Shown here piece after piece: positions 1,667 to 27,985 of a stretch of DNA of 27,985 bases. Each line of letters opens with the position of its first letter. The first letter of the stretch is position 1. A program made the position numbers and the translations under genes. The stretch comes from a virus (taxonomy: Duplodnaviria > Heunggongvirae > Uroviricota > Caudoviricetes): positions 1-27,985 of IMG/VR virus record IMGVR_UViG_2609459774_000007, one strand, 5' to 3'. Under the pieces are notes generated by a model. It ran no database searches and had not been told where the DNA came from. It worked only from the letters and a program-made list of their open reading frames with translations.

Positions 1667-1668
1667 AA

Positions 1669-1684: not shown

Positions 1685-1692
1685 TCTCTTTC

Positions 1693-3418: not shown

Positions 3419-3459
3419 GTCGTTTTCCGGTCCCAGAAACTGCGTGGACGGACGTCGGT

Positions 3460-7917: not shown

Positions 7918-7978
7918 TTCTCCTGAATTTAGATAAAGGGATGCCCGGCGGGTTTACGCCATTAATTTCATTAGCTGG

Positions 7979-8514: not shown

Positions 8515-9001
8515 CGAGGCCAGTCACGGTATCAACTGCACTCGCCATCGCAGGATTAGCCTGTAAACGGGCCTGCAATGAAACAGCCGCCAGCGCCATC
8601 AGTCGTGTAACAGAGTTAATGCTGCTGATCGCATCACGACGGCCTGCACTGGTTTTTACATCGCCAGAAACCGCCCCTGCCGCAACACGCCCGATCTCTG
8701 CGGTTGCACTCATGACGTAATGTGGCAGTTTCTCTTTTGCTACCTCATTAATCGGTACACATGGCAGGCAGTGAATCTGTGCCAGAAAACCATCTATCAG
8801 CGTTGAGTCTTCTGTCAGATCGGTAAGCAGCCAGATTTCTGGCGCATTGAGCTGATGCGGTTGATCTGGGTTGAGTTTGTTTCGCAGTGTCTGAACATTC
8901 ATTCCTGCACGTTCTGCCAGCTTCGCCATATTGTGATGTAGTGCAAAAGCTCTACAGGCTTCATCAAAATGCGGGTGTTTGGAAATCTTATAATCAAACA
9001 T
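8492..9001 (-). CDS. cII: 186-type CII-like transcriptional activator
   Basis: 169-aa ORF, the length of phage 186 CII, with an N-terminal HTH-like segment; sits in the apl-cII-fil order downstream of the divergent cI/apl switch. Confidence 0.7.
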   Translation of the reverse strand: MFDYKISKHPHFDEACRAFALHHNMAKLAERAGMNVQTLRNKLNPDQPHQLNAPEIWLLTDLTEDSTLIDGFLAQIHCLPCVPINEVAKEKLPHYVMSATAEIGRVAAGAVSGDVKTSAGRRDAISSINSVTRLMALAAVSLQARLQANPAMASAVDTVTGLGASFGLL

Positions 9002-9033
9002 GCTACCCCCTTAGAAAGTTCTCATAATTGAAC

Positions 9034-9276
9034 TTACTTACCAACAATGACGCGGAAGTTGGAATGACCGAGGGATTCACGGACCTGATCGGTTTTGTAC
9101 ATTAAATAACGCAGGCTTACGCGGCCTTTGTTTTTTTCTTTCTTGACCATGTATTTAGCAAGCTGACCATGGTGAATTTTTTGATACACGGAGCCGCGGG
9201 AGATACCTTCCCATTCCGCGAACTCAGCAGGCGTTGCCATCTCTTTTGGTACACGAATTGAAATATCAGTACTCAT
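9034..9276 (-). CDS. Apl/Cox-family small HTH protein (putative excisionase / lytic-promoter regulator)
   Basis: 80-aa ORF transcribed divergently from the repressor gene, first gene of the early lytic operon; HTH-like segment ATPAEFAEWEGISRGSVYQKIHHGQL. Confidence 0.55.
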   Translation of the reverse strand: MSTDISIRVPKEMATPAEFAEWEGISRGSVYQKIHHGQLAKYMVKKEKNKGRVSLRYLMYKTDQVRESLGHSNFRVIVGK

Positions 9277-9392
9277 AGTGCAGTATCTCTTAGTTTGGTT
9301 TCGTTTTATCTTGTTTTATGTGGTTTGGTTTTGCTTTTCAAACCATAAATGGATATTAGGATCACTTTTTATATACGTCAAGAGGTTTGATT
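9277..9392. promoter_or_regulatory. divergent lysis-lysogeny switch region (apl/cI intergenic; candidate operators and promoters)
   Basis: 116-bp AT-rich intergenic region between divergent apl and cI, with repeated GTTTGGTTT / TGGTTTGGTTTTG motifs and an inverted AAACCA copy. Confidence 0.5.
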
Positions 9393-10025
9393 ATGAGTTT
9401 AATAAAGGCGGGAAATGATAGTGGTGGGCGCGATGCAATTAACAGGCTTATTAAGGCTTACAACTTCAGCTCACGACAGCAGCTCTGCGAACATCTGGAA
9501 GTATCAAAAAGCACTATGGCTAACAGATACTTAAGGGATAGCTTTCCTGCCGAATGGGTAATTCAATGTGCCCTTGAAACAGGAGCTTCCCTTCTATGGC
9601 TGGCTACTGGTCAAGGAGATATGTATGCGTGTGAGAACGAAGAAACAAATCTCAAAAATGAACCTCCTGTCACTGTAAGACCACTTTCTAAGATCGTTGC
9701 TCCTAGCATCAAACGTGTTGAACTGAAGAACGGCGAACTGCAGCCAAGTGATGAAATTCTTCTTGATAGCAGCCTGCTCGATGGTGACTCATCCAACGCT
9801 TTATTTGTTAAAACAGCTAATAATAGCTTTGTAGTGGATACGTCCGTTAAACAAGTCAGTAATGGCTTCTGGTTAGTCGATATGGACGGAGTTAAAAGCA
9901 TCGTTAAAATTGCGCGCATACCCGGAAACAAAATAGTAGTTAACCAAGATGACACTTCATTTGAATGTTCTGTAGATGATGTGGAAGTCGTAGGACGTGC
10001 AGTCAAAGTAATCAAGAACCTCTAA
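9393..10025 (+). CDS. cI: 186-type CI-like immunity repressor
   Basis: About 210 aa with an N-terminal HTH (VSKSTMANRYLRD...) and a C-terminal oligomerisation-like region; immediately upstream of int as in 186-type prophages. The track ORF starts at a TTG (9387); ATG at 9393 has AGAGG 7 nt upstream. Confidence 0.75.
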   Translation: MSLIKAGNDSGGRDAINRLIKAYNFSSRQQLCEHLEVSKSTMANRYLRDSFPAEWVIQCALETGASLLWLATGQGDMYACENEETNLKNEPPVTVRPLSKIVAPSIKRVELKNGELQPSDEILLDSSLLDGDSSNALFVKTANNSFVVDTSVKQVSNGFWLVDMDGVKSIVKIARIPGNKIVVNQDDTSFECSVDDVEVVGRAVKVIKNL

Positions 10026-10028
10026 CTT

Positions 10029-11048
10029 ATGACCATCAGAAAACAGCCGAACGGAAAATGGTTGTGTGAGTGCTATCCCAATGGACGCAATGGTAAGCGC
10101 GTGCGTAAGCAATTTGCTACCAAAGGCGAAGCCATTGCGTTTGAAAGCTTCACAATGGAAGAAGTGAACAAAAAACCGTGGTTAGGAGAAAAGGATGATC
10201 GGCGACACCTATCAGAATTAATTGAGCTTTGGTATTCCCTGTATGGTCAGACACTCGCAGACCCCAAGCGCCTCATGGCGAAACTTAGAATTATCTGTAA
10301 TGGTCTAGGCGACCCCATCGCCTCAGAACTGACAGCCGGTGACTTTACGAAATACCGCGAAGCACGGTTAAAAGGTGAAGTACGAAATGAAGATGGGACG
10401 CTTATGTCGCCCGTTAAGCCCCGCACGGTAAACCTCGAACAGCGCAATCTATCATCGGTGTTCGGTACATTAAAAAAACTAGGACACTGGTCAGCACCAA
10501 ACCCGCTGGCAGGACTTCCAACCTTCAAAATTGCCGAAGGTGAGCTGGCTTTTCTTTCCATGGACGAAATCAAGCGCCTGTTGGCTGCATGTGCTGAATC
10601 TCAAAGCCCCAGCTTATTAATGATTGCCAAAATATGTTTGGCTACCGGCGCACGTTGGAGCGAAGCCGAAAACCTGCATGGCCACCAAATATCGAAATAC
10701 CGAATTACTTATATAAAGACAAAAGGTAAGAAAAACAGAACAGTACCGATATCACAGGAACTATATGACGAACTCCCCAAGCACAGAGGGAAGTTATTCA
10801 CGCCATGCAGAAAAGCCTTTGAGCGTGCAGTAAAGCGGGCCGGTATTGAACTTCCGGAGGGGCAATGCACCCATGTATTACGTCATACATTCGCCAGCCA
10901 TTTTATGATGAACGGCGGAAACATACTGGTACTACGCGATATTCTGGGCCATGTGGATATAAAAATGACGATGATTTATGCCCACTTTTCCCCTGACCAC
11001 CTAGAAGATGCGGTAACAAAAAACCCACTGTTTAATTTAAAATGGTAA
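10029..11048 (+). CDS. int: P2-type tyrosine integrase
   Basis: 339-aa ORF with clear similarity to P2 Int (PxGRNGKRxRxxF...; catalytic-region HxLRHTFASHFMMNGG...MxYAHF); transcribed toward the attR repeat. Confidence 0.9.
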   Translation: MTIRKQPNGKWLCECYPNGRNGKRVRKQFATKGEAIAFESFTMEEVNKKPWLGEKDDRRHLSELIELWYSLYGQTLADPKRLMAKLRIICNGLGDPIASELTAGDFTKYREARLKGEVRNEDGTLMSPVKPRTVNLEQRNLSSVFGTLKKLGHWSAPNPLAGLPTFKIAEGELAFLSMDEIKRLLAACAESQSPSLLMIAKICLATGARWSEAENLHGHQISKYRITYIKTKGKKNRTVPISQELYDELPKHRGKLFTPCRKAFERAVKRAGIELPEGQCTHVLRHTFASHFMMNGGNILVLRDILGHVDIKMTMIYAHFSPDHLEDAVTKNPLFNLKW

Positions 11049-12583
11049 ATTTAACGATGAAAAGATTGAAATCAGTTTCCGATGCAGTTATCCAACTCAG
11101 ATTAAATGCGGTAAAAGCAAGTATTCAAAGCGTCAATCCAAACGAGTTTATAACACATTGCCTTGATTATAACCTCCAGAAATTTAACAATCAGCTTGAA
11201 ATGTTACAACACCTACCATGGGTTGTGAATTTATGCATTAAATGGTCCGCCAGTGCGCTGGGTAAAAAACGGAAATTTAAACATATTGACAGACCTGGTG
11301 CTGTCAGGTTGCTACAACGAGCATATGAGGAACTAAGTATAATTCCAACTGGTCTGGAAAATATAGACAAAGGGATTAACTTTTTCCTTAGAAATACGTT
11401 ATATCAACAAGGTATTTATCAAAGATTAGATGCTTTAAATACAATTAGCAGACAAGTTTTCTTGTTTTCTTCCTTAGATGACAACAATAGAATCAAGCGT
11501 AGATTCAAAGAACTTACTGATGTTGATATAAACGATTTTCTAAAACTATCATTTGTGTTAGTATCACTCGTTACCTTACAAGCACCAGTAAAGAAAATAA
11601 CAATAGATTCTTTCGCAGCTCTTTACTCCGTAATACCTAAAGATACAATCGAGAAATTTCTGAATACTATATCTATCCCTTACGAAGAACTAGCTCGGTT
11701 TTGCTGTACAAAAGATAATGAGACACCTTTAGTAGAATATTATGCTCCATCGCCTTTCTTAGAAAAACCTTTCATCAAATTCGAAGGAAATTATCACCAA
11801 ATACATACGCAGCTAACTTCGACCAGTATACAAACCTTTATATATGATTTGCTTCGCAGAGATGATGCAGAATCGTTCATGGACAAATTTGGGCGAGTTT
11901 TCGAAAATGCAGTCAACCAGCTATTAGATGAAAGTGGAATTGCTTATATTGCTGAAGGAAATTTAAAAGAATATCTACCTCAAGAGAATAAAGTTGTAGA
12001 TTTTCTACTACCTCATGATGAAGCTAACATTTTCATCGATGCTAAAGGTGTTGAGATAAACCAAAAGGGAATGGTTACACTACGACCAGGGGATATTTCT
12101 GCCAATATAAAAAGCTCCGTATTAAAAACTATAGAACAAGCACACTCAGTAAATAGAGAGCTAATTAAAAAAGGTAACCAAAATTTTTCTTTTAAAAAAG
12201 AGTCCTACATTTTATGTCTTACTTATAAAAATTTATTCCTTGGAAATGGTACATTTCTAAATAAATCCTATGCTAACATCGAAATGAAAAAAATCCGAGA
12301 TAGGCATTCAGAAGAATATCAAATACCTGATGAGAACATTTTCTGCATATCATTTGAGGAATTCGAGTATCTGCTATCTTCTTGCAAGGAATACTCAAAA
12401 CCTGTACATGAGGTACTGCGAGAAGCTGTAGTTAGAAACCAAACACCATCAAGTGCAGTTTTCCTTTTTGCACATCATATCCGTGACTCATTCCCCAAAA
12501 TACGTTCATCTGAGATCGTCAGGCTCGCAGGCTTGAGCGAGATCAACCATATCGTTGAACGATTAGAGCAAGCTGGCTCTTGA
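11042..12583 (+). CDS. uncharacterised 513-aa cargo protein with a putative C-terminal PD-(D/E)xK nuclease core
   Basis: Long AT-rich ORF between int and attR, overlapping the int stop (alternative start ATG 11057). The C-terminal half has E...VVDFLLP...IFIDAKG, fitting the E/D/(D/E)xK arrangement of PD-(D/E)xK nucleases; the N-terminal ~270 aa have no recognised motifs. Confidence 0.6.
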   Translation: MVNLTMKRLKSVSDAVIQLRLNAVKASIQSVNPNEFITHCLDYNLQKFNNQLEMLQHLPWVVNLCIKWSASALGKKRKFKHIDRPGAVRLLQRAYEELSIIPTGLENIDKGINFFLRNTLYQQGIYQRLDALNTISRQVFLFSSLDDNNRIKRRFKELTDVDINDFLKLSFVLVSLVTLQAPVKKITIDSFAALYSVIPKDTIEKFLNTISIPYEELARFCCTKDNETPLVEYYAPSPFLEKPFIKFEGNYHQIHTQLTSTSIQTFIYDLLRRDDAESFMDKFGRVFENAVNQLLDESGIAYIAEGNLKEYLPQENKVVDFLLPHDEANIFIDAKGVEINQKGMVTLRPGDISANIKSSVLKTIEQAHSVNRELIKKGNQNFSFKKESYILCLTYKNLFLGNGTFLNKSYANIEMKKIRDRHSEEYQIPDENIFCISFEEFEYLLSSCKEYSKPVHEVLREAVVRNQTPSSAVFLFAHHIRDSFPKIRSSEIVRLAGLSEINHIVERLEQAGS

Positions 12584-12712
12584 TTGCACAATTGCAAATT
12601 GGCGACAAATTGGCGGCAGAGCATTAAAAATGCGTAAAATAAACAAACACCAAATAATACTAATATGCTGTTTTAAAACATAAATATATGTTTTTATCAT
12701 AATAATAATGGT

Positions 12713-12826: not shown

Positions 12827-12923
12827 CGTCTATTGTAGTCTAGTGAGAATTGCTGAGAACTACGAGTTATGGCACCCTGAATGGGACCCACGAAGATGGG
12901 TCCTAAAATCGAGGGTCCCAAAC

Positions 12924-14153
12924 ATGGCCAAAATCGCTAAGAAGCTCACTGACACTGAAATCAAAAGCACCAAACCTGCCGAAAAAGAGGTTAACCTTTT
13001 TGACGGCGATGGTTTGCTGTTGCGAATCGCTCCCCTGGCGAAGGGAGGGAAGAAAAATTGGTATTTCAGATATGCAGTGCCTGTGACCAAAAAGCGAACT
13101 AAGGTGAGCTTAGGAACCTATCCTCACCTTACACTTGCGAAGGCACGAGCTTTACGTGATGAATACTTGTCGTTGCTTACAAATGGTATAGACCCCCAAG
13201 TTCATAACAACCAAAAAGCCAATGCACTGAAAGATGCCACGGAACATACATTTCAAGCAGTAGCCAAGAAGTGGCTTGATGAGAAAGTCAAAACGTCAGG
13301 CATCTCCCAAGATCATGCTAACGACATCTGGCGAAGCCTAGAGAGAAATATCTTTTCCACATTGGGTGATACCCCAATTAAGGAGATTCGCCCTAAAATG
13401 CTTAAACAGCATTTAGAACCCATAGAAAAACGAGGTGTCCTTGAAACACTTCGCCGCATCATATCCCGCCTGAATGAAATTTTCCGCTATGCAGCAACAG
13501 AAGAACTCATAGAATTCAACCCGGCAGACAACCTGGGGCAACGGTTCAGCAAGCCAAAAAAACAGAATATGCCAGCATTACCCCCTTCCGAACTCCCTCG
13601 CTTCTTGGTTGCTCTAAACAATGCTTCTATCCGTTTGGAAACAAGGCTACTGATTGAGTGGCAACTTCTCACATGGGTTCGCCCAGGTGAAGCTGTTCGC
13701 ACAAGATGGTCAGATATTGATATTGAAACTGGCATGTGGAACATCCCGGCGGAGTTTATGAAAATGAAGAAGCCTCACAAAGTTCCACTGAGCAAAGAAG
13801 CTTTGCGAGTTTTGGATTTAATGAAAGTCATCAGCGGGCATAGAGAGTGGGTGTTCCCCAGTATCAAAGCTCCACTCAATCACATGCATGAACAAACAGC
13901 TAATGCGGCCATAATCCGTATGGGTTTCGGAGGTGAGCTTGTAGCTCACGGTATGCGATCCATTGCTAGAACGGCTGCTGAGGAGTCTGGCAAGTTTAGG
14001 ACTGATGTCTTAGAAGCCGCCCTTGCCCACTCGAAGAAAGATGAAATAATTGCAGCCTACAATCGTGCAGAGTATCTCACTGAACGGGTGGTTCTCATGC
14101 AATGGTGGAGTGACTATGTTTCGTCTCAAAAATGCAAAGTTATTGCCGCATAA
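12924..14153 (+). CDS. P4/IntA-family tyrosine integrase
   Basis: Strong similarity to E. coli CP4-57 IntA as I recall it (LTDTEIK..KP, DIWRSLER, LETLRR, PLS.EAL.(V/I)L, HG.RSIA.TA, LAH, AYNR.(E/D)YL..R...MQWW.D). The track ORF starts at 12843; the homology-supported start is ATG 12924 (MAKIAKKLTDTEIK). Confidence 0.9.
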   Translation: MAKIAKKLTDTEIKSTKPAEKEVNLFDGDGLLLRIAPLAKGGKKNWYFRYAVPVTKKRTKVSLGTYPHLTLAKARALRDEYLSLLTNGIDPQVHNNQKANALKDATEHTFQAVAKKWLDEKVKTSGISQDHANDIWRSLERNIFSTLGDTPIKEIRPKMLKQHLEPIEKRGVLETLRRIISRLNEIFRYAATEELIEFNPADNLGQRFSKPKKQNMPALPPSELPRFLVALNNASIRLETRLLIEWQLLTWVRPGEAVRTRWSDIDIETGMWNIPAEFMKMKKPHKVPLSKEALRVLDLMKVISGHREWVFPSIKAPLNHMHEQTANAAIIRMGFGGELVAHGMRSIARTAAEESGKFRTDVLEAALAHSKKDEIIAAYNRAEYLTERVVLMQWWSDYVSSQKCKVIAA

Positions 14154-14215
14154 CTCTCCCATGATGGATTAACTATCTTGATTTAGTTAAAGAATTAATA
14201 ATCACACCATTAACC

Positions 14216-14265
14216 TATGTGGACTAAGCATAGCCATTTACAAATGGGGACATTGAGTCCACATA
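14216..14265. repeat. 50-bp nested inverted repeat (candidate recombinase or ParB binding/crossover site)
   Basis: Outer 10-bp arms TATGTGGACT / AGTCCACATA flank a 30-bp spacer that itself contains CCATTT-AC-AAATGG (6-bp arms around a non-palindromic AC centre); between intA and the serine recombinase gene. Confidence 0.5.
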
Positions 14266-14435
14266 ACGAAAGCTGTCGGTCATATCAGCTAAATAATTCA
14301 CATCTCTTCTCGATTATCATACACCTCGAAGATCTACCAAATTCGCTCTAATCAATGATAAAACAGTTGAATTCGGTTGAAATTTGATCAATTTTATCCA
14401 CTACATTGTATTGAATCATCCATGAGGTTTCGTGC

Positions 14436-15992
14436 ATGGCTAGCGAAAATGACAAAAATCATAGAGTTAGGGTCGCGCAGTACTTGAGGATGTCTACCGA
14501 CCATCAGCAATATTCTTTACATAATCAGTCCGAATATATCAAAGATTATGCTGAAAAGAACAATATGGAAATCGCTTATACCTACGATGATGCAGGTAAG
14601 AGCGGAGTCAGTATCGTAGGCAGGCATTCTTTGCAGCAGTTACTTAGCGATGTAGAACAAAAGAAAATAGATATACAGGCTGTATTATTTTATGATGTGA
14701 GCCGTTTTGGTCGTTTTCAAAATAGTGATGAAGCGGCATATTATTCCTTTCTATTTGAGAGAAATGGTGTAGATCTTATATATTGTTCCGAACCTATACC
14801 CACTAAAGATTTCCCTTTAGAGTCCTCTGTTATACTGAATATAAAAAGATCTAGTGCTGCATATCACAGCAGGAATCTATCTGAAAAGGTATTTATAGGG
14901 CAAGTAAATTTAATAAAGCTTGGTTATCATCAAGGCGGTATGGCTGGTTATGGGCTGAGACGTCTTTTAGTAGACGAAAATGGCATAGCTAAAGAAATAT
15001 TGAGTTTCCGCAAAAGAAAGAGTATTCAAACAGATAGGGTAATATTAATTCCGGGACCAAAAAATGAAATAAAAATTGTAAATAGAATATATGATCTCTT
15101 TATAGATAATAACGTCCCAGAATTCATTATTGCTGAGAGATTAAATGAACAGAACATACCTGCAGAAAATGGAACATTATGGACTCGTGCAAAAATACAT
15201 CAAATTTTGACAAATGAAAAATATATTGGAAACAACATATATAACAAAACCTCATCTAAATTAAAAAGTAGGCTTGTAAAAAACCCCAAACATGAATGGG
15301 TTAGATGTGACAAGGCATATAAACCTATTATTTCAAAGAAAAAATACAATAAAGCTCAAGAAATAATTCAGCTCCGATCCATTCATTTGACTAATGAAGA
15401 TCTATTAGAAAAACTAAAACAAAAATTAGAATCTAATGGAAAACTATCAGGCTTTATCATTGATGAAGATGATACAGGCCCTTCATCTTCTGTTTATAGA
15501 ACCCGATTTGGTGGTCTTTTAAGAGCATATACTTTGATTGGTTATAAGCCAGAACATGATTACAGCTATCTCAAAATAAATGAAGCACTAAGATCATTTT
15601 ACTCAGAGATAATTGAGGATTTTAAGGGTGAAATTTTAAAAAGTAACTGTCATATAGACGAGTATAAATATGCCCCAATGCTTTACATCAATGATGAGTT
15701 TTTAATTTCCGTCCTTGTTACTAAATGCATACATATGAAATCAGGTAAACTTAGATGGAAAGTCCGGTTTGATAACTCACAGAAAGCAGACATAACAATT
15801 GTTATACGAATGAATTCACAAAATATTTCACCTCTTGATTTTTATATCATACCAAAGATTGAAAACGAATATAATAAAATGTGCATGACGGAAACAAACA
15901 ACATTCGATTAGATCTCTATAGATTTGATAATCTTGATAAACTTCTACAAATTATTACTCGCATGAAAGTGAGGGAACTATATGCTGCCTGA
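14436..15992 (+). CDS. large serine recombinase (resolvase/invertase catalytic domain plus recombinase domain)
   Basis: 518-aa AT-rich ORF; the N-terminus has the serine-recombinase catalytic pattern (YLRMSTDHQQYSLHNQ ... YDDAGKSG ... DVSRFGR); RBS GAGG upstream. Confidence 0.85.
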   Translation: MASENDKNHRVRVAQYLRMSTDHQQYSLHNQSEYIKDYAEKNNMEIAYTYDDAGKSGVSIVGRHSLQQLLSDVEQKKIDIQAVLFYDVSRFGRFQNSDEAAYYSFLFERNGVDLIYCSEPIPTKDFPLESSVILNIKRSSAAYHSRNLSEKVFIGQVNLIKLGYHQGGMAGYGLRRLLVDENGIAKEILSFRKRKSIQTDRVILIPGPKNEIKIVNRIYDLFIDNNVPEFIIAERLNEQNIPAENGTLWTRAKIHQILTNEKYIGNNIYNKTSSKLKSRLVKNPKHEWVRCDKAYKPIISKKKYNKAQEIIQLRSIHLTNEDLLEKLKQKLESNGKLSGFIIDEDDTGPSSSVYRTRFGGLLRAYTLIGYKPEHDYSYLKINEALRSFYSEIIEDFKGEILKSNCHIDEYKYAPMLYINDEFLISVLVTKCIHMKSGKLRWKVRFDNSQKADITIVIRMNSQNISPLDFYIIPKIENEYNKMCMTETNNIRLDLYRFDNLDKLLQIITRMKVRELYAA

Positions 15993-16878
15993 AAAAAATG
16001 AATTCCCAATAATTCAAATTGAGATTGCAAAAATAAAATTTCTTAACCCACGAACAAGAAATAAGGTAGTGCATGAAGAAATAAAGGAAAGCATAAAAAA
16101 AAGAGGATTAAGCAAGCCAATAAGCGTAAGAGCTATTGATGAAGGCGATTTCAAATATGCTTTAATTTGTGGTCAAGGGAGAATAGAGGCTCTCGTTGCA
16201 TTAGGTGAAACTATTATTCCAGCAATTATAAGAGATGTATCAGAAGAAGATGCTTACGTTATGAGTTTAGTTGAAAACATTGCAAGGAGAAGGCCACGTT
16301 CTAATGAGTTATTACAGGTGATTAAAGACATGAAAATCAGAGGACTTTCAGACTCCGAAATAAGTGAGATTACTGGATATTCATCGAACTGGGTGAGCAG
16401 TATTAATATGCTACTTGATAAGGGAGAGCATAAACTTCTCTCAGCAGTCGAACGGGGTAATTTGCCTCTGTATCTCGCAGTGCAATTTGCAAGATGTGAA
16501 ACTGAGGAAGCACAAGATATTCTTACCGAAGCATATGATAAAAAATTAATAAAAAGTCGGGACATTATAAAGATAAAACACATTCTAAATCAAAGAACAG
16601 TTGGGAATAAAGGTGCAAAAGCAGCCGGATTTTATTATCACAAACCATCAAAAAGGATGACTGCAGAGGAGTTGATTGAGCTTTATGAAAATAGTATCGC
16701 TGAACATAAATCTGTTTATAACAACTCAAAATTCATAAAAACCAACCTACTAATAGTAAATGAGATTTTTAACATCATAATGATGAATAAAAGCTTTCAA
16801 CATATACTTGAACAAGAGAATCTTTCAGAACTACCATCTCAGATATTAACCCCAGTAAACAAAGAGGTATTAAAATGA
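15982..16878 (+). CDS. ParB/Srx-fold protein with HTH (ParB-like, paralogue 1)
   Basis: 298 aa; N-terminal ParB-like region (IQIEIAKIKFLNPR ... ISVRAIDEGDFKYALICGQGRIEAL ... IPAIIRDVSEEDAYVMSLVENIARR) followed by an HTH-like segment; start overlaps the recombinase stop. Confidence 0.7.
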   Translation: MLPEKNEFPIIQIEIAKIKFLNPRTRNKVVHEEIKESIKKRGLSKPISVRAIDEGDFKYALICGQGRIEALVALGETIIPAIIRDVSEEDAYVMSLVENIARRRPRSNELLQVIKDMKIRGLSDSEISEITGYSSNWVSSINMLLDKGEHKLLSAVERGNLPLYLAVQFARCETEEAQDILTEAYDKKLIKSRDIIKIKHILNQRTVGNKGAKAAGFYYHKPSKRMTAEELIELYENSIAEHKSVYNNSKFIKTNLLIVNEIFNIIMMNKSFQHILEQENLSELPSQILTPVNKEVLK

Positions 16879-17771
16879 TTCAGATACGTTTTGGCGATAA
16901 TTTTATTTACCTGGAAACTAATAAGTTAATTCCATCTAAGGAATTATTAGAAAACGTAAAGCGAAGCCATAAATATCATCAAATAGTTACCTCTATCGAA
17001 AGCTTAGGTATTATTGAACCAATAATAGTATTCTATGACAAAGATAAAGATGTCACTAAGATACTTGATGGCCATTTAAGGGTTGAGGCTTTAAAAGACT
17101 TAGGTATAGAAAAAGCTCCATGTATACTTTCGAGCATAGATGATGCTTTCACTCCTAACAAACAAGTGAATCATATAAATGTAGTTGAAGAACATAGAAT
17201 GATAATTAAGTCTCTGGCAAAAGTATCAATTGAAAAACTTAGTGCTGCTTTGGGCATATCTGTTGATGCCATAAAAGATAAAGCGAATGTGATGAACGGC
17301 ATAGATCCAAGTGTAATTGCGAAACTTTCTGATAAACCTATACCTAAGGCTACATTTGACGTTTTGAGGAAAATGAAGCCAATTCGCCAAATTGAAGCAG
17401 TCGGTACAATGATTAATTTTGATAATTATAGTAAAAAATTTGCAATGAGCATCTTGGATGCAACACCGGCATCGATGATAGTAAATAAAGGGAAAAACAC
17501 TCCCTATAAAAAGGACATAAAAAAAACCATACTTCGTCTGGAACAAGAAATGGCAACAACTTCGGAAGAAACGAAAAAGCTTCAAACCGAGTATGGTTCA
17601 GATATGTTGAAATTCGTTATAATCCAGTCATATATTAATAAATTACTTGGCAATTCTAAAGTTCTTCATTGGTTCTTAGAAAACGAGGTTGATTATCTTA
17701 ATGAGTTAAAAAGAATTTCTAGAATAAATTCTTTGGATGATAAGACTCTTACTGAAAACAGCAAGTCATAG
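16875..17771 (+). CDS. ParB/Srx-fold protein with HTH (ParB-like, paralogue 2)
   Basis: 298 aa; ParB-like N-terminal region with a DGHxR-type motif (ILDGHLRVEAL) and an HTH-like segment (LSAALGISVDAIKD); start overlaps the stop of the preceding ParB-like gene by 4 nt. Confidence 0.65.
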   Translation: MIQIRFGDNFIYLETNKLIPSKELLENVKRSHKYHQIVTSIESLGIIEPIIVFYDKDKDVTKILDGHLRVEALKDLGIEKAPCILSSIDDAFTPNKQVNHINVVEEHRMIIKSLAKVSIEKLSAALGISVDAIKDKANVMNGIDPSVIAKLSDKPIPKATFDVLRKMKPIRQIEAVGTMINFDNYSKKFAMSILDATPASMIVNKGKNTPYKKDIKKTILRLEQEMATTSEETKKLQTEYGSDMLKFVIIQSYINKLLGNSKVLHWFLENEVDYLNELKRISRINSLDDKTLTENSKS

Positions 17772-19367: not shown

Positions 19368-20915
19368 ATGGCCAGAAAACCTAAAGAAATCAAAACAGAC
19401 CCGTTAGAGGTCATCCTGTGGAAAGCGGCAGACAAACTGCGTAAAAACATTGATGCAGCCGAGTACAAGCACGTCGTACTAGGCCTCATTTTCCTTAAGT
19501 ACATTTCTGATTCTTTTGAATCTCATTATGAGTTGCTGAAAGCCGGTAAAGGCGAGTTCGCAGGTGCTGATCCGGAAGACAAAGACGAGTACACCGCTTA
19601 CAACGTTTTCTTTGTCCCTGAGCTTGCACGTTGGAACTATCTGATTTCTAAGGCCAAGCTTCCTGAAATCGGTAAGATGGTTGATGATGCGATGGAGCTT
19701 ATCGAAGCGGGCAATCCACAGTTAAAAGGTGTGTTGCCGAAAGTCTATGCCCGACAAAACCTCGACGCCACTGTTCTGGGTGAGCTGATAGATCTGATTG
19801 GCAACATTGCACTAGGAGATGCCAAAGCACGCTCTGCTGACGTTTTAGGTCACGTATTCGAATACTTCCTAGGTGAATTTGCACTGGCAGAAGGCAAACA
19901 AGGCGGCCAGTTCTATACGCCAAAATCTATTGTAAGCCTGCTGGTTAACATGCTGGAACCCTATAAAGGCCGTGTCTTTGATCCCTGCTGTGGTTCTGGT
20001 GGTATGTTCGTTCAGTCAGAAAAATTTGTAGAAGCACATCAGGGAAATATTGACGATATTTCGATCTATGGGCAGGAGTCCAACCAGACCACTTGGCGTC
20101 TGGCAAAAATGAACCTGGCAATTCGTGGGATTAATTCTGAACACGTTCGCTGGAATAATGAAGGTTCATTTCTTAACGATGCTCACAAAGATTTGAAATC
20201 TGATTTTATCATAGCTAACCCACCGTTTAACGTTTCCGACTGGTCTGGTGAGCAGCTTCGTGGTGATGCCCGCTGGCAATATGGCATTCCACCTGCTGGC
20301 AACGCTAACTTTGCATGGATGCAACATTTTTTGTATCACTTGTCTCCTAAAGGGCAAGCGGGTGTTGTTCTGGCAAAAGGGGCATTAACTTCTAAAAGCT
20401 CTGGTGAAGGTGATATTCGTGCTGCACTGGTAAAAGATGCCAATGTGATTGACTGTATCGTCAACTTACCGGCAAAGCTGTTCCTGAATACTCAGATCCC
20501 TGCTGCATTATGGTTTATGCGCCGTGACCGTCATAACAGCAACCAGTATCGTGATCGTAGTAAAGAAATTCTGTTTATTGATGCCCGTAATCTCGGTCAT
20601 TTAATTAATCGTCGTACCAAAGTACTTTCTGACGACGATATAAAAACCATCGCTGATACCTATCATAACTGGCGTAACAAAGGTGGCGACTACGAAGACG
20701 TCGCTGGTTTCTGTGCGTCAGTAGACATTGCTGAAGTTGCTAAACTCGATTATGTGCTGACACCTGGCCGTTATGTTGGTCTTGCTGATGAAGAAGACGA
20801 TTTCGACTTTAAAGAACGCTTTACGGCTCTTAAAGCTGAGTTTGAAGCGCAACTGGAAGAAGAGGCGCGTCTGAACAGAGCCATCGTTGATAATCTGGCG
20901 AAGGTGGTTTTATGA
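19368..20915 (+). CDS. hsdM: type I restriction-modification system, DNA methyltransferase subunit
   Basis: 515-aa ORF with an HsdM-type N-terminus and the N6-adenine methyltransferase catalytic motif NPPF (IIANPPFN); start overlaps nothing upstream and its stop overlaps the hsdS start by 4 nt. Confidence 0.92.
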
Positions 20916-22105
20916 GTAGGTGGAGAAATTTTTGTATAACTGAATTAGCAGATTTTTGCAACGCACAAAGAATTCCTTTGAGTGCTATGGAACGAGCCCA
21001 TAAGAAAGGAAATTTTCCATATTATGGAGCGTCAGGAATTGTCGATTATATCGACAATTATATTTTTGATGGCAGCTACATCCTTATTTCTGAAGATGGA
21101 GAAAACTTAAAGTCCAGAAAAACACCTATAGCATTTGAAGCTACTGGAAAATTTTGGGTTAATAATCACGCTCATGTCCTTAAAGCTAAAAAGCCCCATT
21201 TAACGGCATTGATAATCCAATATTTTTCACAACTTGATCTATCTCCTTATTTAACAGGTGCTGCTCAACCAAAATTAAATAAAGCATCGCTAAATTTGAT
21301 TCCTCTTTACTTACCAATTGATGAATCTGAACAAAAAGCCATCGCCTCTATTTTGTCCTCTCTTAAAGACAAAATAGACCTGCTTCATCGCCAGAATAAA
21401 ACTCTGGAATCCATGGCAGAAACCCTATTTAGACAGTGGTTTATTGAAGAGACGCATGCGGATTGGGAAATAACGACTCTTGATTGTCATATTACAGTAG
21501 CTAAGGGATTAAGCTACAAGGGAGCCGGCCTTACCACGTCAGATAACGGCATTCCACTTTTTAGTTTGAACTCAGTACTTGAGGGCGGTGGTTATAAGAG
21601 TGCAGGTATAAAATACTACAATGGTGATTTTAAAGAAAGGCATATTATAAAGCCTGGGGATATCATTGTAGCCAATACAGAACAGGGCCATGAATATCGA
21701 CTCATAGGGTATCCTGCTATAATTCCAAAAACAGAAAGCGAATTATCCATATATACGCATCATTTATTTAAAATCAGCATCAATGACGATAGTTACTTAA
21801 CCAATGCTTTTCTGTACTATTTACTTTGCTCCAAAGATATGCATGAGCAAGTTGTTGCTGCAACTAACGGTTCAACTGTAAATCAGCTGTCGGCTGACGG
21901 ATTACAACGCCCAGAATTCAAACTCCCCCCGGAGTGTATGGTGAAAGAATTCACTACACAGATTGATTTCTTCTGGAAAAAAATAAGTATTAACAACTCA
22001 CAAATTAAAAACATAGAATCTCTGCGCGACACTCTCCTTCCCAAACTGATGAGCGGCGAAGTACGGGTTCAGTATGCGGAAGAAGCAATCGCATCAGTAG
22101 CATAA
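20912..22105 (+). CDS. hsdS: type I restriction-modification system, specificity subunit
   Basis: 397-aa ORF with a two-target-recognition-domain architecture and the typical HsdS N-terminal pattern ([14 protein letters not shown]); translationally coupled to hsdM. Confidence 0.85.
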
Positions 22106-22163
22106 AATAATTATGCGGGTGTACAGCCCGCTCTCTGGTTAAGCGGCAATAAGGACAGTACGC

Positions 22164-25100
22164 ATGGCAAAGATGACCGAATCCGATATTGAAGTAATGG
22201 CAATTGAGCACCTGCAAGGGCTGGGCTATGAGTATGTTTACGGCCCGGACATTGAACCCAGTGGAATCAATCCGTTACGTAGCTATCAGCAGGTTATCCT
22301 TGAAGATAAAGTGCGTACAGCATTGCAACGAATTAACCCGCACCTTAGTGAGCAGAAGTGTGAAGAAGCTCTAAAACAGGTGATGCAGATCAGCTCACCT
22401 GACCTAATGGCAAACAATCTAACCTTTCATCGCCTTTTGACCGAAGGAATCAATATCGAAGTCAGCAAGGATGGTAATACACAAGGAGAACTGGCCAGCC
22501 TGATCGACTTTAACGATCCCACTAATAATGCATTTCTGGTCATTAATCAGCTCACCATCAAAGAAGGCAACCATACCCGCCGACCTGATCTTATTTTATT
22601 CATCAATGGCCTGCCATTAGTCGTTATCGAACTTAAAAATGCCGCTGACGAAAATGCAACGGTAACAGGTGCCTATAATCAGATTAAAACCTATCAGAAC
22701 CAAATCCCCGGTCTGTTTAACTACAATGCTTTTAATGTGATATCTGACGGGCTGGAAGCCAAAGCGGGGACGGTTTCTGCCGATTTCAGTCGTTATATGA
22801 CGTGGAAAACTGCTAACGGTAAAACGCAAGCCACCAGTACCCAACCACAGCTTGAAGTTTTATTACAGGGGTTGCTTAATCCTGTAACGCTGCTGGATAT
22901 AATCCGCCACTTTATCGTGTTTGAGGCCAGCAAACATGAAGACAGCAAAGGGATTATCAGTATCCGTACTGTTAAAAAAATGGCGGCTTATCACCAGTAC
23001 TACGCGGTCAATGCAGCAGTTCTTTCCACTATTCGTGCCTCAGCGGTGAATGCGGACTCCCCCTCTGCCGAAGTGGCACTGCGCCAGCAGGGACGTAACA
23101 GTAAAGATCTTGTTAATGCGCAAAAAACCGGAGATCGCAAAGCGGGCGTAGTCTGGCATACTCAGGGTTCCGGTAAATCGCTTTCGATGGTGTTTTATAC
23201 CGGGAAAATTGTGCTGGCGCTGGATAATCCGACAGTTGTTGTGATTACTGACCGTAACGACTTAGATGATCAGCTATTCGGTACGTTCTCTTCCGCGACC
23301 CAGCTACTTCGTCAGACACCAAAACAGGCCAACAACCGGGAAGAACTCAAAGAATATTTGCGTGTCGCCTCTGGCGGTGTGGTGTTTACTACTATTCAAA
23401 AATTCCAGCCTGATGATGGCAGCAATATCTATGAGTTGTTGTCAGACAGAACCAATATTGTCGTTATCGCTGATGAAGCACACCGTTCCCAGTACGGTTT
23501 CAGCGCCAAAGAAGTTGACGTGAAAGACAGCGAAGGCAACGTAACAGGTAAACGCACCGTTTACGGCTTTGCCAAATATATGCGTGATGCCTTACCTAAT
23601 GCGACCTATCTCGGCTTTACCGGAACCCCCATAGAAAAAACGGACGTCAACACGCCTGCTGTTTTTGGTAACTATGTTGATATCTACGATATCTCGCAGG
23701 CCGTTGAAGATGGTGCAACAGTTCGTATCTTTTATGAAAGCCGTCTTGCCAAAATTGCCATCAGTGATGAAGGTCGTCAGCTTATTGAAGACTTTGATGA
23801 TGAGTTTAACGAGGACGAACTGACGCTCACGCAAAAAGAACGTTCTAAATGGGCCAGAATCGAAGGTTTGATTGGCAGTTCAAAACGTATTAAAGCGATT
23901 GCGGCGGATATGGTTCTGCACTTTGAGCAGCGCTTAAAATCCAATGCCGATCATGGTAAGGGCATGATTGTTACCATGTCCCGCCGTATTGCTGCTGAAC
24001 TATATAAAGAAATCATAGCCTTAAAACCTGAATGGCACAGCGATGATTTAAATGACGGTATAATAAAAGTCGTCATGACCTCTTCTGCTGCTGACGGGCC
24101 AGAAATTGCCAAACACCACACCACAAAAAAAGAACGTCAGGTTCTGGCTAACCGTATGAAGGATGACGACGACAAGCTGAAACTGGTGATAGTGCGTGAT
24201 ATGTGGTTAACCGGCTTCGACGCTCCCAGCATGCATACGCTGTATATCGACAAACCAATGAAAGGCCACAACCTTATGCAGGCAATTGCCCGTGTGAACC
24301 GTGTGTATAAAGATAAGATAGGCGGTCTGGTTGTTGACTATCTGGGCATTGCCTCTGATTTAAAAGAAGCCCTCTCCTTTTACTCTGATGCAGGTGGACG
24401 TGGAGATCCTGCTGAGGTTCAGGAAGAAGCCGTAACGCTCATGCAGGAAAAGCTGGAAATCCTGGAAGGCATGATGCATGGATACGATTACAAAGCTTAC
24501 TTTGCCGCAACTACCTCACAACGCCTGACAATTATTCTTGAATCAGAAAACCATATTTTAGGGCTGGATAACGGTAAAGGTAAAATGCGTTTCCTCGCTG
24601 CGGTTGCAGCCTTATCGCAGGCATTTGCATTGGCGACACCGCACGATAAAGCAATGGAAGCGGCACCCGAAGTAGCATTCTTCCAGGCAGTAAAAGCCAG
24701 ACTGAATAAATTTACTGAAAACTCAGACGGATCAGAAGAAGAACACAATGACAGTCTCGAAGTTCGGGTAAAACAGACTATCGATCAGGCTCTGGTTACC
24801 GATAAAGTTGTTGATATTTTTGACGCTGCTGGGATACAAAAACCTGATATTTCCGTTCTTTCTGAAGAATTCCTTCAGGAAATGAAGGATTACCAACACA
24901 GAAATATTGCTTTGGAAACGCTTAAAAAACTGCTTTCTGACGAGATCAAGGTTCGCTCGAATCAAAGTATCACCCAAGGCAAAAAACTGATTGATATGCT
25001 GACCTCTGCAATCAATGGCTACCAGAACAAGGTACTGACCGCAGCGGAGGTAATTGATGAGCTAATCAAGCTTGCCAAGACTATCCAGGAATCTGACAGC

Positions 25101-25403
25101 CTTGCCAGCCAGTTAAACCTCAGCGCTTATGAATATGCCTTCTATTCTGCTGTTGCAGATAACGACAGTGCTCGCGAGTTAATGGAAAAGGAAAAACTAC
25201 GAGAACTGGCAGTCGTACTTACGGAGGCTATCCGCAACAATGTCAGTCTTGACTGGACAGTGAAAGAAGCAGCAAGAGCAAAAATTCGCGTGGTGGTAAA
25301 ACGTCTGCTCAAAAAATATGGTTATCCGCCTGATATGTCATTGCTCGCCACAGAGACTGTTTTGAAGCAGGCTGAACTTTTAGCTGGAGAATTAGGAAAA
25401 TGA
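22164..25403 (+). CDS. hsdR: type I restriction-modification system, restriction (helicase/endonuclease) subunit
   Basis: 1079-aa ORF with an N-terminal nuclease region and SF2 helicase motifs including DEAH (VVIADEAHRSQ); RBS AAGGA upstream. Confidence 0.92.
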   Translation: MAKMTESDIEVMAIEHLQGLGYEYVYGPDIEPSGINPLRSYQQVILEDKVRTALQRINPHLSEQKCEEALKQVMQISSPDLMANNLTFHRLLTEGINIEVSKDGNTQGELASLIDFNDPTNNAFLVINQLTIKEGNHTRRPDLILFINGLPLVVIELKNAADENATVTGAYNQIKTYQNQIPGLFNYNAFNVISDGLEAKAGTVSADFSRYMTWKTANGKTQATSTQPQLEVLLQGLLNPVTLLDIIRHFIVFEASKHEDSKGIISIRTVKKMAAYHQYYAVNAAVLSTIRASAVNADSPSAEVALRQQGRNSKDLVNAQKTGDRKAGVVWHTQGSGKSLSMVFYTGKIVLALDNPTVVVITDRNDLDDQLFGTFSSATQLLRQTPKQANNREELKEYLRVASGGVVFTTIQKFQPDDGSNIYELLSDRTNIVVIADEAHRSQYGFSAKEVDVKDSEGNVTGKRTVYGFAKYMRDALPNATYLGFTGTPIEKTDVNTPAVFGNYVDIYDISQAVEDGATVRIFYESRLAKIAISDEGRQLIEDFDDEFNEDELTLTQKERSKWARIEGLIGSSKRIKAIAADMVLHFEQRLKSNADHGKGMIVTMSRRIAAELYKEIIALKPEWHSDDLNDGIIKVVMTSSAADGPEIAKHHTTKKERQVLANRMKDDDDKLKLVIVRDMWLTGFDAPSMHTLYIDKPMKGHNLMQAIARVNRVYKDKIGGLVVDYLGIASDLKEALSFYSDAGGRGDPAEVQEEAVTLMQEKLEILEGMMHGYDYKAYFAATTSQRLTIILESENHILGLDNGKGKMRFLAAVAALSQAFALATPHDKAMEAAPEVAFFQAVKARLNKFTENSDGSEEEHNDSLEVRVKQTIDQALVTDKVVDIFDAAGIQKPDISVLSEEFLQEMKDYQHRNIALETLKKLLSDEIKVRSNQSITQGKKLIDMLTSAINGYQNKVLTAAEVIDELIKLAKTIQESDSLASQLNLSAYEYAFYSAVADNDSARELMEKEKLRELAVVLTEAIRNNVSLDWTVKEAARAKIRVVVKRLLKKYGYPPDMSLLATETVLKQAELLAGELGK

Positions 25404-25448
25404 TTCCCTAAATTTTTAGCATATAAACTATTTGGTAATGGTCCCAAC

Positions 25449-25826
25449 TTATTGATAGTGTTTTATGTTCAGATAATGCCCGATTACTTTGTCATGCAGC
25501 TCCACCGATTTTGAGAACGACAGCGACTTCCGTCCCAGCCGTGCCAGATGCTGCCTCAGATTCAGGTTATGCCGCTCAATTCGCTGCGTATATCGCTTGC
25601 TGATTACATGCAGCTTTCCCTTCAGGCGGGATTCATACAGCGGCCAGCCATCCGTCATCCATATCACCACGTCAAAGGGTGACAGCAGGCTCATAAGACG
25701 CTCCAGCGTCGCTATAGTGCGTTCACCGAATACGTGCGCAACAACCGTCTTCCAGAGCCTGTCATACGCGTAAAACAGCCAGCGCTGCCGCGATTTAGCC
25801 CCGACGTAGCCCCACTGTTCGTCCAT
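25449..25826 (-). CDS. insB: IS1 InsB' transposase frame (expressed as an InsAB' fusion by -1 frameshifting)
   Basis: 125-aa ORF from the first Met matches the C-terminal ~125 aa of InsB ([23 protein letters not shown]...HYLNIKHYQ); the frame extends further upstream, overlapping insA. Confidence 0.8.
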
Positions 25827-26113
25827 TTCCGCGCAGACGATGATGTCACTGCCCGGCTGTATGCGCGAGGTTGCCGACTGCGGCCTGAGTTTTTTAAGTG
25901 ACGTAAAATCGTGTTGAGGCCAACGCCATTCATGGCCATATCAATGATTTTCTGGTGCGTACCGGGTTGAGAAGCGGTGTAAGTGAACTGCAGTTGCCAT
26001 GTTTTACGGCAGTGAGAGCAGAGATAGCGCTGATGTCCGGCAGTACTTTTACCGTTACGCACCACCCCGTCAGTAGCTGAACAGGAGGGACAGCTGATAT
26101 AAACAGAAGCCAC
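25712..26113 (-). CDS. insA: IS1 InsA, variant (11-aa in-frame deletion; stop codon lost, extended to 133 aa)
   Basis: The first 65 aa match InsA, then the segment CRATARIMGVG is missing (MNGVG|LNTI), and the canonical TAA after ...GRSR reads CAA so the frame runs on to 133 aa. The frameshift motif TTAAAAAAC is retained. Confidence 0.8.
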
Positions 26114-26632
26114 TGGAGCACCTCAAAAACATCATCATACACTAAATCAGTAAGTTGGCAGCATCACCCCTTCCTGGCTGTTGAAAAAGACTACGCTGCT
26201 TAAATTTTAAATGAGCATCCTCAAGCCGAATAACTTAAAGGATGCTCTTCAAATTTTAATAAGAATTATCAACAGCAAAAAACCTCATAAAAAACACTAC
26301 TCATTTAATTTCCAAAATTAAGATGAACATTAATAACCACCATTATATTACATGATCTTTTCCATATCCTATAGCATTACTCTCTATAGTATTAATATCT
26401 GAGCCTCTAATTATCTCCTTTATACAGATTAGTTCCAATATGGATAAATATTCTTGTGAAAATGGTTAATCCACATCACATAGGATAACCTTAACGTCCC
26501 TATGTTCCATTAAGTTAAGAATAACCTTAAGCAAACCAAATCAGATACCCCCTAATAAAACAAAAATAAATTTGAATACCGTAAAATCTGGTGTCATTAA
26601 TATCTTGAAAACAACAAAAAAGGAGATAAACA

Positions 26633-27502
26633 ATGATATCAAGAGAAAATAATAAAAATAACCTATTCCGTGTAAAGTCTAAAAATGGTGTCCTTCGTTG
26701 CCTTAAGGCTGGCATGGATATAAATATGTGCAATAGTAAAGGTCAAACTGCTCTTTTTACCTGTAATGTACCTGAAGCTATACAGGCAATGATTGACGCT
26801 GACATTGACATTCACCACTTGGATAATGACGGTAATAATGCATTATTCTATGCTCAAAATGTTGAAACAGTGGAACTTCTTGTCAGCAATGGTATTAATG
26901 TTAACCACCGGAATAAGTCAGGCACCCTTGCGATTCAACATATTGATGTTTCACCAGGGTTAGTAAAATATCTTATCAAAGCAGGACTAGATATCCATAC
27001 CAAAGATAGCTATGGCAATTCCTTTCTTTTCATTCCATTTGAAGGATATGTGTACGATGCACTAATTGAGGCTGGTTGCGACATTAATCATAAAAATATA
27101 AGTGGACAGACAGCATTCGATCACTGGCAGTCAGAAAATAATAGCATAGTTGGTAAATATACGCACTGGGAATCTAAAAACGATAACTACATTCGTTTTC
27201 TTATCCGTAATATTCATCTTAAAGACAGTTCAAAAATTGTATTCACGAACATTACATTTAAATCAATTGAGCTGTTGTCGTTACTTATAAAGCAAAAAAA
27301 TGAATTTGAGATAAGTGATAAGTGCATTATCACACCAACAAATGCCGACGCTAAAAAATTAATTTTACAACTAAAGAAGCTGACAGACATTAGTCATGTT
27401 TGGTTTTACATAAGCAGTACATATCTACTGACGCACTATGCAGGAAGACTGCTAATTAAATTGGATTTGCCCCTATATTTCCAGACATCTGTTATCACTT
27501 AA
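26633..27502 (+). CDS. ankyrin-repeat protein, 3' end interrupted by the IS2 insertion
   Basis: AT-rich ORF with a strong RBS (AAGGAG) and repeated ankyrin-like units (GQTALF...; [11 protein letters not shown]...[15 protein letters not shown]; KSGTLAIQH...; DSYGNSFL...; ISGQTAF). The last ~14 codons (from 27460) are IS2 terminal sequence, so the native C-terminus is lost. Confidence 0.7.
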
Positions 27503-27985
27503 CCCATTACAAGCCCGCTGCCGCAGATATTCCCGTGGCGAGCGATAACCCAGCGCACTATGCGGATGCCATTCGTTATAATGCTCGAACGCCTCTGCAA
27601 GGTTCTTTGCTGCCGTTAACCCGTCTGGTTTGGGCATGATACTGATGTAGTCACGCTTTATCGTTTTCACGAAGCTCTCTGCTATTCCGTTACTCTCCGG
27701 ACTCCGCACCGCCGTGTTCTTCGGTTCAAGTCCCAACATCCGGGCGAACTGGCGTGTTTCATTAGCCCGGTAGCATGAACCATTATCCGTCAGCCACTCC
27801 ACTGGAGACGACGGAAGATCGTTGCCGAAGCGGCGTTCCACCGCTCCCAGCATGACGTCCTGTACTGTTTCACTGTTGAAGCCGCCGGTAGTGACCGCCC
27901 AGTGCAGTGCCTCACGATCACAGCAGTCCAGCGCGAACGTGACACGCAGTCTCTCTCCGTTATCACAGCAGAACTCGAACCCGTC
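27460..27985 (-). mobile_element. IS2 insertion sequence, partial (continues beyond the window end)
   Basis: The terminal sequence at 27460-27500 is the reverse complement of the IS2 end (...GTGATAACAGATGTCTGGAAATATAGGGGCAAATCCA), and the adjacent ORF is IS2 InsD. Confidence 0.85.
27473..27985 (-). CDS. insD: IS2 transposase InsD (OrfB), 5'-partial at the window edge
   Basis: Matches the IS2 InsD C-terminal region (...[44 protein letters not shown]...[19 protein letters not shown]...); the frame continues in-phase upstream to the window end ([44 protein letters not shown]). Confidence 0.9.

Follow-up and report, generated by a model that had tools for sequence, protein, structure and literature searches.

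An ankyrin-repeat gene cut by IS2 on a mobilizable enterobacterial island and the possible role of its intact relatives in mobile-element conflict

In generic bacterial ankyrin proteins of the Pfam Ank clan (e.g., WP_001356251.1 and WP_012138996.1), helix-loop-helix repeats of 33 residues are arrayed in tandem and exceed the Pfam score cutoffs. Here, we analyze an ankyrin-repeat gene, ank1, located between the insertion sequences IS1 and IS2 near the end of a 27,985-nucleotide stretch of DNA recorded as viral (Caudoviricetes; IMG/VR record IMGVR_UViG_2609459774_000007), which as a whole is referred to as the window. In its intact form, ank1 is the first gene of a module on a mobilizable Enterobacterales genomic island, followed by a gene for a 146-amino-acid orphan protein (hyp146) and a paralogous ankyrin gene (ank2). 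The proteins of this family share the repeats of generic ankyrin proteins, and RefSeq already holds family members as "ankyrin repeat domain-containing protein." However, the family adds a conserved C-terminal region and comprises few clusters, found only in Enterobacterales. Its members are previously uncharacterized representatives of the ankyrin superfamily with a C-terminal domain devoid of known relatives. As the best overall explanation, which we hold with moderate confidence, the window copy is a decayed remnant of ank1, and the intact family consists of protein binders involved in mobile-element conflict.

In MOBP- and MOBQ-type mobilization systems, the origin of transfer (oriT) is usually found by the start of the accessory-protein/relaxase operon, and the far side is the leading region. 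In conjugative plasmids, the leading region is enriched in anti-defense genes, whose orientation allows them to be transcribed from the transferred strand (Samuel et al. 2024, PMC11541004). Like these genes, the ankyrin module lies by a relaxase operon, is co-oriented with it on the expected first-entry side, varies in gene content, and encodes small or nonenzymatic products. It differs from them in lacking a demonstrated oriT or single-stranded DNA (ssDNA) promoter, anti-defense homology, and plasmid-borne members, and in that some members of the ankyrin family reside in islets without mobilization genes. With the ANK/F-box and PRANC proteins of poxviruses, Orientia, and Legionella, the family shares the logic of a variable N-terminal stack (5 to 8 repeats) joined to a conserved C-terminal module, as well as the organization in multiparalogue families on mobile or parasitic genomes. 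In contrast to these proteins, its hosts are free-living enteric bacteria, and neither an F-box or PRANC signal nor an implied eukaryotic target was found. The fate of the window copy corresponds to the island decay caused by deletions adjacent to IS1 and IS2 elements, with fusion to an insertion sequence end, noncontiguous flanks lacking a target duplication, and loss of neighboring genes. In this respect, ank1 shows no unusual feature, and the process is an ordinary one.

Truncation of ank1 and the IS2-associated deletion

An earlier note on this DNA, made by a model from the letters and a list of open reading frames (ORFs), had described an AT-rich ankyrin-repeat gene with a strong ribosome-binding site (RBS). 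These features were borne out. The RBS reads AAGGAG and is spaced 7 nt from the ATG. Pfam profiles identified Ank_4 (E = 2.8e-17; 62.9 bits at a gathering cutoff of 22.7), Ank_2 (2.7e-13; 50.7 bits, cutoff 27.3), Ank_5 (2.8e-09; 37.6 bits, cutoff 27), and Ank (22.2 bits, cutoff 21.1) in the 289-residue product, each score exceeding the respective gathering threshold. Together with an AlphaFold2 model, this confirmed that the repeats, about five in number, are indeed of the ankyrin type. The GC content of the coding sequence (CDS) is 34.4%, with 30.4% at third codon positions (GC3), compared to 29.7% in the region upstream of ank1, 51.6% in IS1, and 54.6% in IS2.

Identity to native island DNA runs to position 27461, and the IS2 end, TGGATTTGCCCC, follows from 27462 onward. 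Thus, the gene is truncated at the IS2 end as proposed, although two nucleotides further downstream than the previously assigned position 27460. RefSeq contains the same junction, with the neighboring gene labeled "IS3-like element IS2 family transposase," and carries the truncated ORF as a normal CDS. At the protein level, residues 1 to 276, ending in …LLIK, are identical to intact alleles, which continue with WLI(R/C)(N/H)DIKVD…KKRL. In the window, this part is replaced by an IS2-derived tail of 13 residues, instead of the approximately 14 codons suggested initially. The uninterrupted gene encodes 328 amino acids in SCU-118, JX21CE33, OkiPb01681, and Escherichia coli C, so the native C terminus was lost as anticipated, with 52 native residues removed and 13 foreign residues gained.

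The assumption of a plain IS2 insertion did not hold. In a genome with identical context, the far side of the IS2/IS3 composite adjoins not ank1 but DNA that in E. coli C is located ~170 bp away from the amylase pseudogene, and the two IS2 flanks, TAAAT and GTTGC, differ. Neither the 5-bp target duplication nor the contiguous flanks of a simple insertion were thus found. Because the far flank lies near the amylase pseudogene and a target duplication is missing, the event was an IS2-associated deletion or a recombination between insertion sequences. It removed everything from ank1 codon 277 to the amylase pseudogene, including hyp146, ank2, and the NikA-like/relaxase mobilization operon, among others. 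Nothing else of the ank1/hyp146/ank2 module survives within the window. The earlier suspicion that a downstream partner gene had been lost is supported by the intact loci, which go on with the orphan gene, the paralogous ankyrin gene, and the mobilization operon. Parallel decay of the island, mediated by ISSen4, was found in E. coli C.

Among 5,426 complete E. coli genomes, 311 contain the ank1 region, and every copy is chromosomal; in several of them, including those with the 328-codon gene named above, the match breaks off precisely at window position 27461. A junction-spanning query detected the exact ank1-IS2 junction in 215 of the 5,426 genomes, and 79 carry an uninterrupted ank1 equivalent, among them E. 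coli C/NCTC122 and the enterotoxigenic strain E24377A.

The cut falls inside a degenerate terminal ankyrin-like repeat, at IKW|LI, and deprives the protein of one half of a helix pair, of its long terminal helix, and of a conserved basic tail. Residues L278, I279, I283, V285, L290, K291, and Y296, which are invariant, belong to the lost part, and AlphaFold2 modeled residues 271 to 300 of the intact allele with a predicted local distance difference test score (pLDDT) of 77 to 86. Since these invariant residues and the last helices are gone, the truncated product is very likely nonfunctional. It might alternatively have been kept by selection as a functional 289-residue fusion, such as an ankyrin binder acting on its own. 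In favor of this, the truncation left the reading frame, start codon, and RBS untouched, RefSeq annotates a normal CDS, all five canonical repeats are kept together with most of the C-terminal domain, and 215 complete genomes share the allele. However, these copies are at least 99% identical, which fits recent clonal descent and provides no evidence of selection, and the constant partners of ank1, hyp146 and ank2, are absent in the window lineage. Considering in addition the invariant residues and structural elements removed by the cut, we regard a functional fusion as unlikely, and the 215 near-identical copies presumably reflect clonal descent with no sign of selection.

The intact module, its island, and the protein family

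In intact loci, ank1, hyp146, ank2, a NikA-like gene, a gene for a MobA/VirD2-type relaxase, and three small genes follow each other on one strand. Beyond these lie one opposite-strand gene, a gene encoding an HTH_36 protein, and a tyrosine recombinase gene (opposite strand). On the intact island, the module is placed between defense cargo, namely type I restriction-modification (RM) and Kiwa, and the NikA-like/relaxase operon. The trio or parts of it immediately precede the nikA-like/relaxase genes, in the same orientation, in E. coli, Salmonella, Klebsiella michiganensis, Citrobacter, Kluyvera, Atlantibacter, and a metagenome-assembled genome (MAG), and co-orientation with the relaxase operon holds in all loci. 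Downstream of ank2 or hyp145, there is a hairpin with a T-run, and the DNA ahead of nikA contains a conserved, promoter-like block of the TTGACT type. Because this hairpin and block separate them, the ankyrin genes and the mobilization operon are separate transcription units.

The island is located between mutS and ygbA in JX21CE33 and at ssrA in the window lineage and E. coli C. Its block of hsdMSR, Kiwa or an insertion sequence, ank1, hyp146, ank2, nikA, and the relaxase gene is 91 to 100% identical in Citrobacter youngae, Kluyvera cryocrescens, an Atlantibacter MAG, Pseudocitrobacter, and an Enterobacteriaceae MAG. This identity across genera implies that the island spread recently between at least five enterobacterial genera. 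AT-rich ank1, for which acquisition from a distant source had originally been suspected, was acquired horizontally.

In elements at mutS, hyp146 is part of the backbone and the ankyrin genes are optional. The K. michiganensis element at this site contains hyp146 and ank2 and no cargo. E. coli elements at mutS with the same backbone (L019 to L021) have hyp145 alone and no ankyrin genes; their cargo (7164-9438) encodes an AAA_15/AAA_21 ATPase of 496 amino acids and a 281-amino-acid protein. No relatives of hyp146 were detected in Pfam, PHROGs, NCBIfam, or PADLOC-DB v2, and a comparison to sequences in the Protein Data Bank (PDB) yielded four matches, all with E values of at least 0.2. OX345050.1, a linear 3.6-kb Salmonella contig labeled as plasmid, contains a partial hyp146 together with ank2-like and nikA-like genes; this contig is a piece of the module described here and not an independent replicon.

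Individual islands show further cargo and damage. In E. coli C (NZ_CP020543.1, 16359-29323), hsdM and hsdS were lost to ISSen4, in keeping with the classic restriction-less phenotype of this strain, and another ISSen4 copy interrupts ank2. The JX21CE33 island carries, at 34099-38082, a cluster encoding a JAB protein (3.5e-37), an E1-E2 protein (9.9e-103), a 383-amino-acid protein, and a 155-amino-acid protein. No nucleotide cyclase was seen in this cluster, and the N terminus of the 383-amino-acid protein matches the N termini of LmuA, Avs1a, and an MBL-type effector.

The ankyrin proteins form at least five paralogous subtypes, Ank1 (328 amino acids), Ank2 (314 to 316), Ank3 (330), AnkL (412), and AnkS (291 to 306). 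Ank2 is 32% identical to Ank1 over the full length, including the non-ankyrin half, and AnkL contains more repeats. In Salmonella, Ank3 was found at the far end of an island, and in E. coli C, it adjoins a SIR2 protein matching the PADLOC candidate PDC-S25 (4.4e-77). Throughout the loci examined, family members occur in multiples, and AnkL and AnkS are encoded as an adjacent pair every time. The Salmonella AnkL-AnkS pair forms an islet at ssrA together with a P4-type integrase gene only, and the pair was also found in Klebsiella aerogenes, Citrobacter portucalensis, Superficieibacter, and Rahnella. We considered that hyp146 might be hidden in these islets, and tblastn found none. Apart from AnkS, every subtype carries a basic K(K/R)RL or GGRL tail at its C terminus (L003, 9449 and 11205; L011, 9289; L014, 18600), which could serve as a localization, degradation, or export signal.

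A word-indexed search of 5.8 billion proteins recovered relatives of the family in Enterobacterales only, comprising 328-amino-acid orthologues with 99 to 60% identity and the 291- to 306-amino-acid subtype with 43 to 45% identity, and matches elsewhere were restricted to generic repeats. For the conserved C-terminal region of ~150 residues, no relative was identified in Pfam, PDB, or viral structures, and an exhaustive profile search with this domain alone gave 21 matches among 1.84 billion cluster representatives. Long multi-stretch matches to the profile were giant ankyrin proteins aligning at profile positions ~62 to 101 only. Therefore, the end of the domain is a degenerate ankyrin repeat, the one cut by IS2. 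AlphaFold2 predictions for the intact allele (pLDDT of 80.4 for the full length and 80.6 for the C-terminal domain alone) place about five ankyrin helix pairs at residues ~10 to 170 (pairs 40-55, 70-85, 100-116, 138-146, and 161-167), a beta-alpha-beta-alpha-beta unit at ~200 to 260, an ankyrin-like helix pair at 266 to 280, and a long helix at 296 to 314. A signal peptide, for which the earlier note had proposed a check, and a lipobox are absent from the intact protein as judged by its sequence. The ratio of nonsynonymous to synonymous substitution rates among ank1 alleles is 0.08 to 0.22, and therefore the intact gene is under purifying selection.

Possible roles of the intact proteins

Ankyrin architecture and the absence of a catalytic signature indicate that the intact proteins most likely act by protein binding and not by catalysis. 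As family members are obligately multiple, they probably work in pairs. The setting of their action would be a conflict of the mobile element with its host or with competing phages. Within this frame, we tentatively prefer a role in establishment or counter-defense over one in defense. Where it accompanies a nikA-like/relaxase operon, the module always lies directly upstream of it. In this reading, the ankyrin genes would be placed on the side of oriT that is first to reach the recipient, and their products might bind and neutralize defense proteins of this cell. The enrichment of plasmid leading regions in anti-defense genes and the behavior of hyp146 as a backbone gene are in line with such a function in establishment or counter-defense. 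It is conceivable, though doubtful at this stage, that ankyrin solenoids (natural "DARPin-like" binders) combined with the previously unseen C-terminal domain constitute a new class of counter-defense or defense determinants beside the transfer origin. Such a determinant, consisting of ank1/hyp146/ank2 or AnkL and AnkS, would bind and neutralize, or sense, specific immune or phage proteins.

Several observations weigh against our explanation. Between ank2 or hyp146 and nikA, the search for oriT found only a variable, terminator-like T-run hairpin and the TTGACT-type block. Predicted ssDNA folds upstream of ank1, hyp146, and hyp145 were not exceptional (z values of -1.80, -1.29, and -2.20) and included no long hairpin resembling Frpo- or ssi-type promoters. 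Islets with AnkL (412 amino acids) and AnkS (~300 amino acids) have an integrase gene only and no mobilization genes, which fits cargo better than a transfer role. Apart from the OX345050.1 contig, no plasmid or phage homologues were detected beyond generic repeat matches, and full-text literature searches turned up nothing on the ankyrin family or the island. As for decay of the window copy, the intact frame and RBS and the normal-CDS annotation in the window lineage are compatible with residual activity.

A further possibility, nearly as likely as counter-defense and itself no better than tentative, is that the two- or three-gene ankyrin module is an anti-phage or anti-plasmid defense system carried as island cargo. 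Its solenoids would sense a phage protein, with the C-terminal domain and/or the 146-amino-acid protein as effector. The neighborhood of the ankyrin genes is in line with this, comprising type I RM, Kiwa, the SIR2 protein (PDC-S25 candidate) beside Ank3 in E. coli C, and the JAB/E1-E2 cluster on the JX21CE33 island. In addition, AnkL and AnkS are the sole cargo of small islets with P4-type integrases at ssrA and elsewhere, and diversification into at least five paralogue subtypes is typical of conflict genes. However, no effector domain is recognizable in the proteins, and the gene set is not fixed, since hyp146 occurs alone and ankyrin pairs occur without hyp146. The K. michiganensis locus with hyp146 and ank2 in the absence of other cargo looks like backbone. 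A known defense system was also considered and rejected, as matches in PADLOC-DB v2 were partial and restricted to generic repeats (PDC-M72A, 8e-11, residues 19 to 100; MzaA; "Ankyrin").

Ankyrin-repeat immunity proteins are known from polymorphic-toxin systems and type VI secretion systems (T6SS) (e.g., PMC11470151), and several tandem paralogues are present on the integrase-bearing islands. This raises the question of whether the family might represent orphan immunity proteins against competitor toxins (T6SS, contact-dependent inhibition [CDI], or Rhs) gathered on a mobile island. However, a toxin, Rhs, CDI, or T6SS gene was adjacent in none of the ~25 loci examined, and the lack of a signal peptide or lipobox excludes periplasmic toxins as targets. 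Moreover, a shared conserved C-terminal domain with a basic tail would not be expected of proteins with differing specificities, and we consider this explanation quite improbable. Even less probable is a function as eukaryote-directed effectors in the manner of the Legionella, Coxiella, and Orientia Ank proteins or of immune-dampening phage ankyrins, with the basic tail directing export. In favor of this, eukaryote-like effectors classically include ankyrin proteins, modulation of eukaryotic immunity is known from phage ankyrins, every long family member has K(K/R)RL or GGRL at its C terminus, and the hosts are gut-associated Enterobacterales. Nevertheless, the NCBIfam models of the Dot/Icm effectors AnkH and AnkY gave only 41.5 and 27.8 bits against cutoffs of 600, confined to the repeats of ank2, and Pfam and fold searches found no F-box or PRANC domain. 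Likewise, no secretion system is linked to the family in any locus, and its members are also present in E. coli C and other laboratory and commensal strains, as well as in environmental genera such as Rahnella and Superficieibacter.

While the window copy is an ordinary remnant decayed by insertion sequences, the intact family holds more interest, as it comprises strongly constrained paralogues fixed between the defense cargo and the mobilization genes of a genus-crossing island. Should its proteins act in counter-defense or defense, ankyrin-based binders would join the bacterial immune and anti-immune repertoire, and the family would provide a handle on how mobilizable defense islands become established in new hosts. 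Intact copies are available in the tractable strains E. coli C and E24377A.

Upstream side of ank1 and remainder of the window

Coordinates of ank1 and the neighboring features are compiled in Table 1.

Table 1. Position, strand, and description of features at the ank1 locus of the window
Feature	Position	Strand	Description
hsdM, hsdS, hsdR (type I RM)	19368..25403	+	Island cargo
IS1 copy (735 bp)	25434..26168	-	Replaced kwaA and most of kwaB; placed by IS1 ends and alignment with a Kiwa-bearing island
kwaB 3' end (last 35 bp)	26169..26203	+	TAA at 26201-26203; aligns with kwaB of JX21CE33
Region upstream of ank1	26204..26632	+	29.7% GC; RBS at 26620-26625
Hairpin (9-bp stem, 17-nt loop)	26213..26247	+	Arms GAGCATCCT (26213-26221) and AGGATGCTC (26239-26247); starts 10 nt past the kwaB stop codon
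Truncated ank1 ORF	26633..27502	+	289 amino acids/289 codons
ank1, native part	26633..27461	+	Codons 1-276 of 328 (5' 84%); about five ankyrin repeats and most of the C-terminal domain
IS2-derived ORF tail	27462..27502	+	13 codons and stop codon
IS2 right end	27462..27985 (to window edge)	-	3' end of the transposase gene; terminus TGGATTTGCCCC

In every island of this type, hsdMSR precedes Kiwa or IS1 and ank1. The Kiwa genes kwaA and kwaB are intact between hsdR and ank1 in JX21CE33 (PADLOC KwaA, 3.7e-95; KwaB, 8.2e-165), and intact kwaAB was also found in C. youngae and a MAG, while the window retains only 35 bp of kwaB. IS1 begins just past the hsdR stop codon, and the first non-IS1 base is 26169. 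Because IS1 adjoins this stop codon and the 3' end of kwaB lies to its right, IS1 replaced the Kiwa defense genes, and it did so before the IS2 deletion. In RefSeq, the identical context is annotated with "IS1 family transposase." The first ORF of the window IS1 extends to 133 amino acids, and the window copy is shorter than the canonical element of 768 bp.

Regarding the region upstream of ank1, the 9-bp inverted repeat and the two direct repeats reported earlier are both present, the former within 2 nt of its assigned position. The inverted repeat forms the most robust and stable local hairpin in the ssDNA fold and is conserved in JX21CE33 along with kwaB. It follows the kwaB stop codon and is probably the kwaB terminator, not control DNA of the ankyrin gene; a consensus terminator scan did not call it, as the loop exceeds 8 nt. 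Exact copies of the direct repeat ATAACCTTAA start at 26485 and 26521. In the 98% identical JX21CE33 allele, the second site reads ATAACCACAA, and the 81% identical orthologue has neither copy. With up to one mismatch allowed, the 10-mer matches at the frequency expected by chance. A regulatory role of these repeats was therefore rejected, as they are not conserved even in the 98% identical allele. In the 81% identical orthologue, conservation upstream of ank1 is limited to the proximal ~60 bp and the RBS.

At the left end of the window, ssrA, encoding the transfer-messenger RNA (698-1060), is followed by a P2-like prophage remnant (698-12600 region) standing in tandem with the RM/ankyrin island. 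Genes of the remnant include ogr, late control D, a replication endonuclease gene (4541-6955, minus strand), and genes for CI (9387-10025), an integrase (10029-11048), and a GapS1 family protein (11042-12583). No complete genome among the 5,426 has this prophage-island tandem as such; the closest reaches 85% coverage at 94% identity. The left part of the ssrA island (12843-17771; 30 to 38% GC) contains a P4-type integrase gene, a serine recombinase gene (14436-15992), and two adjacent ParB-like genes (15982-17771).

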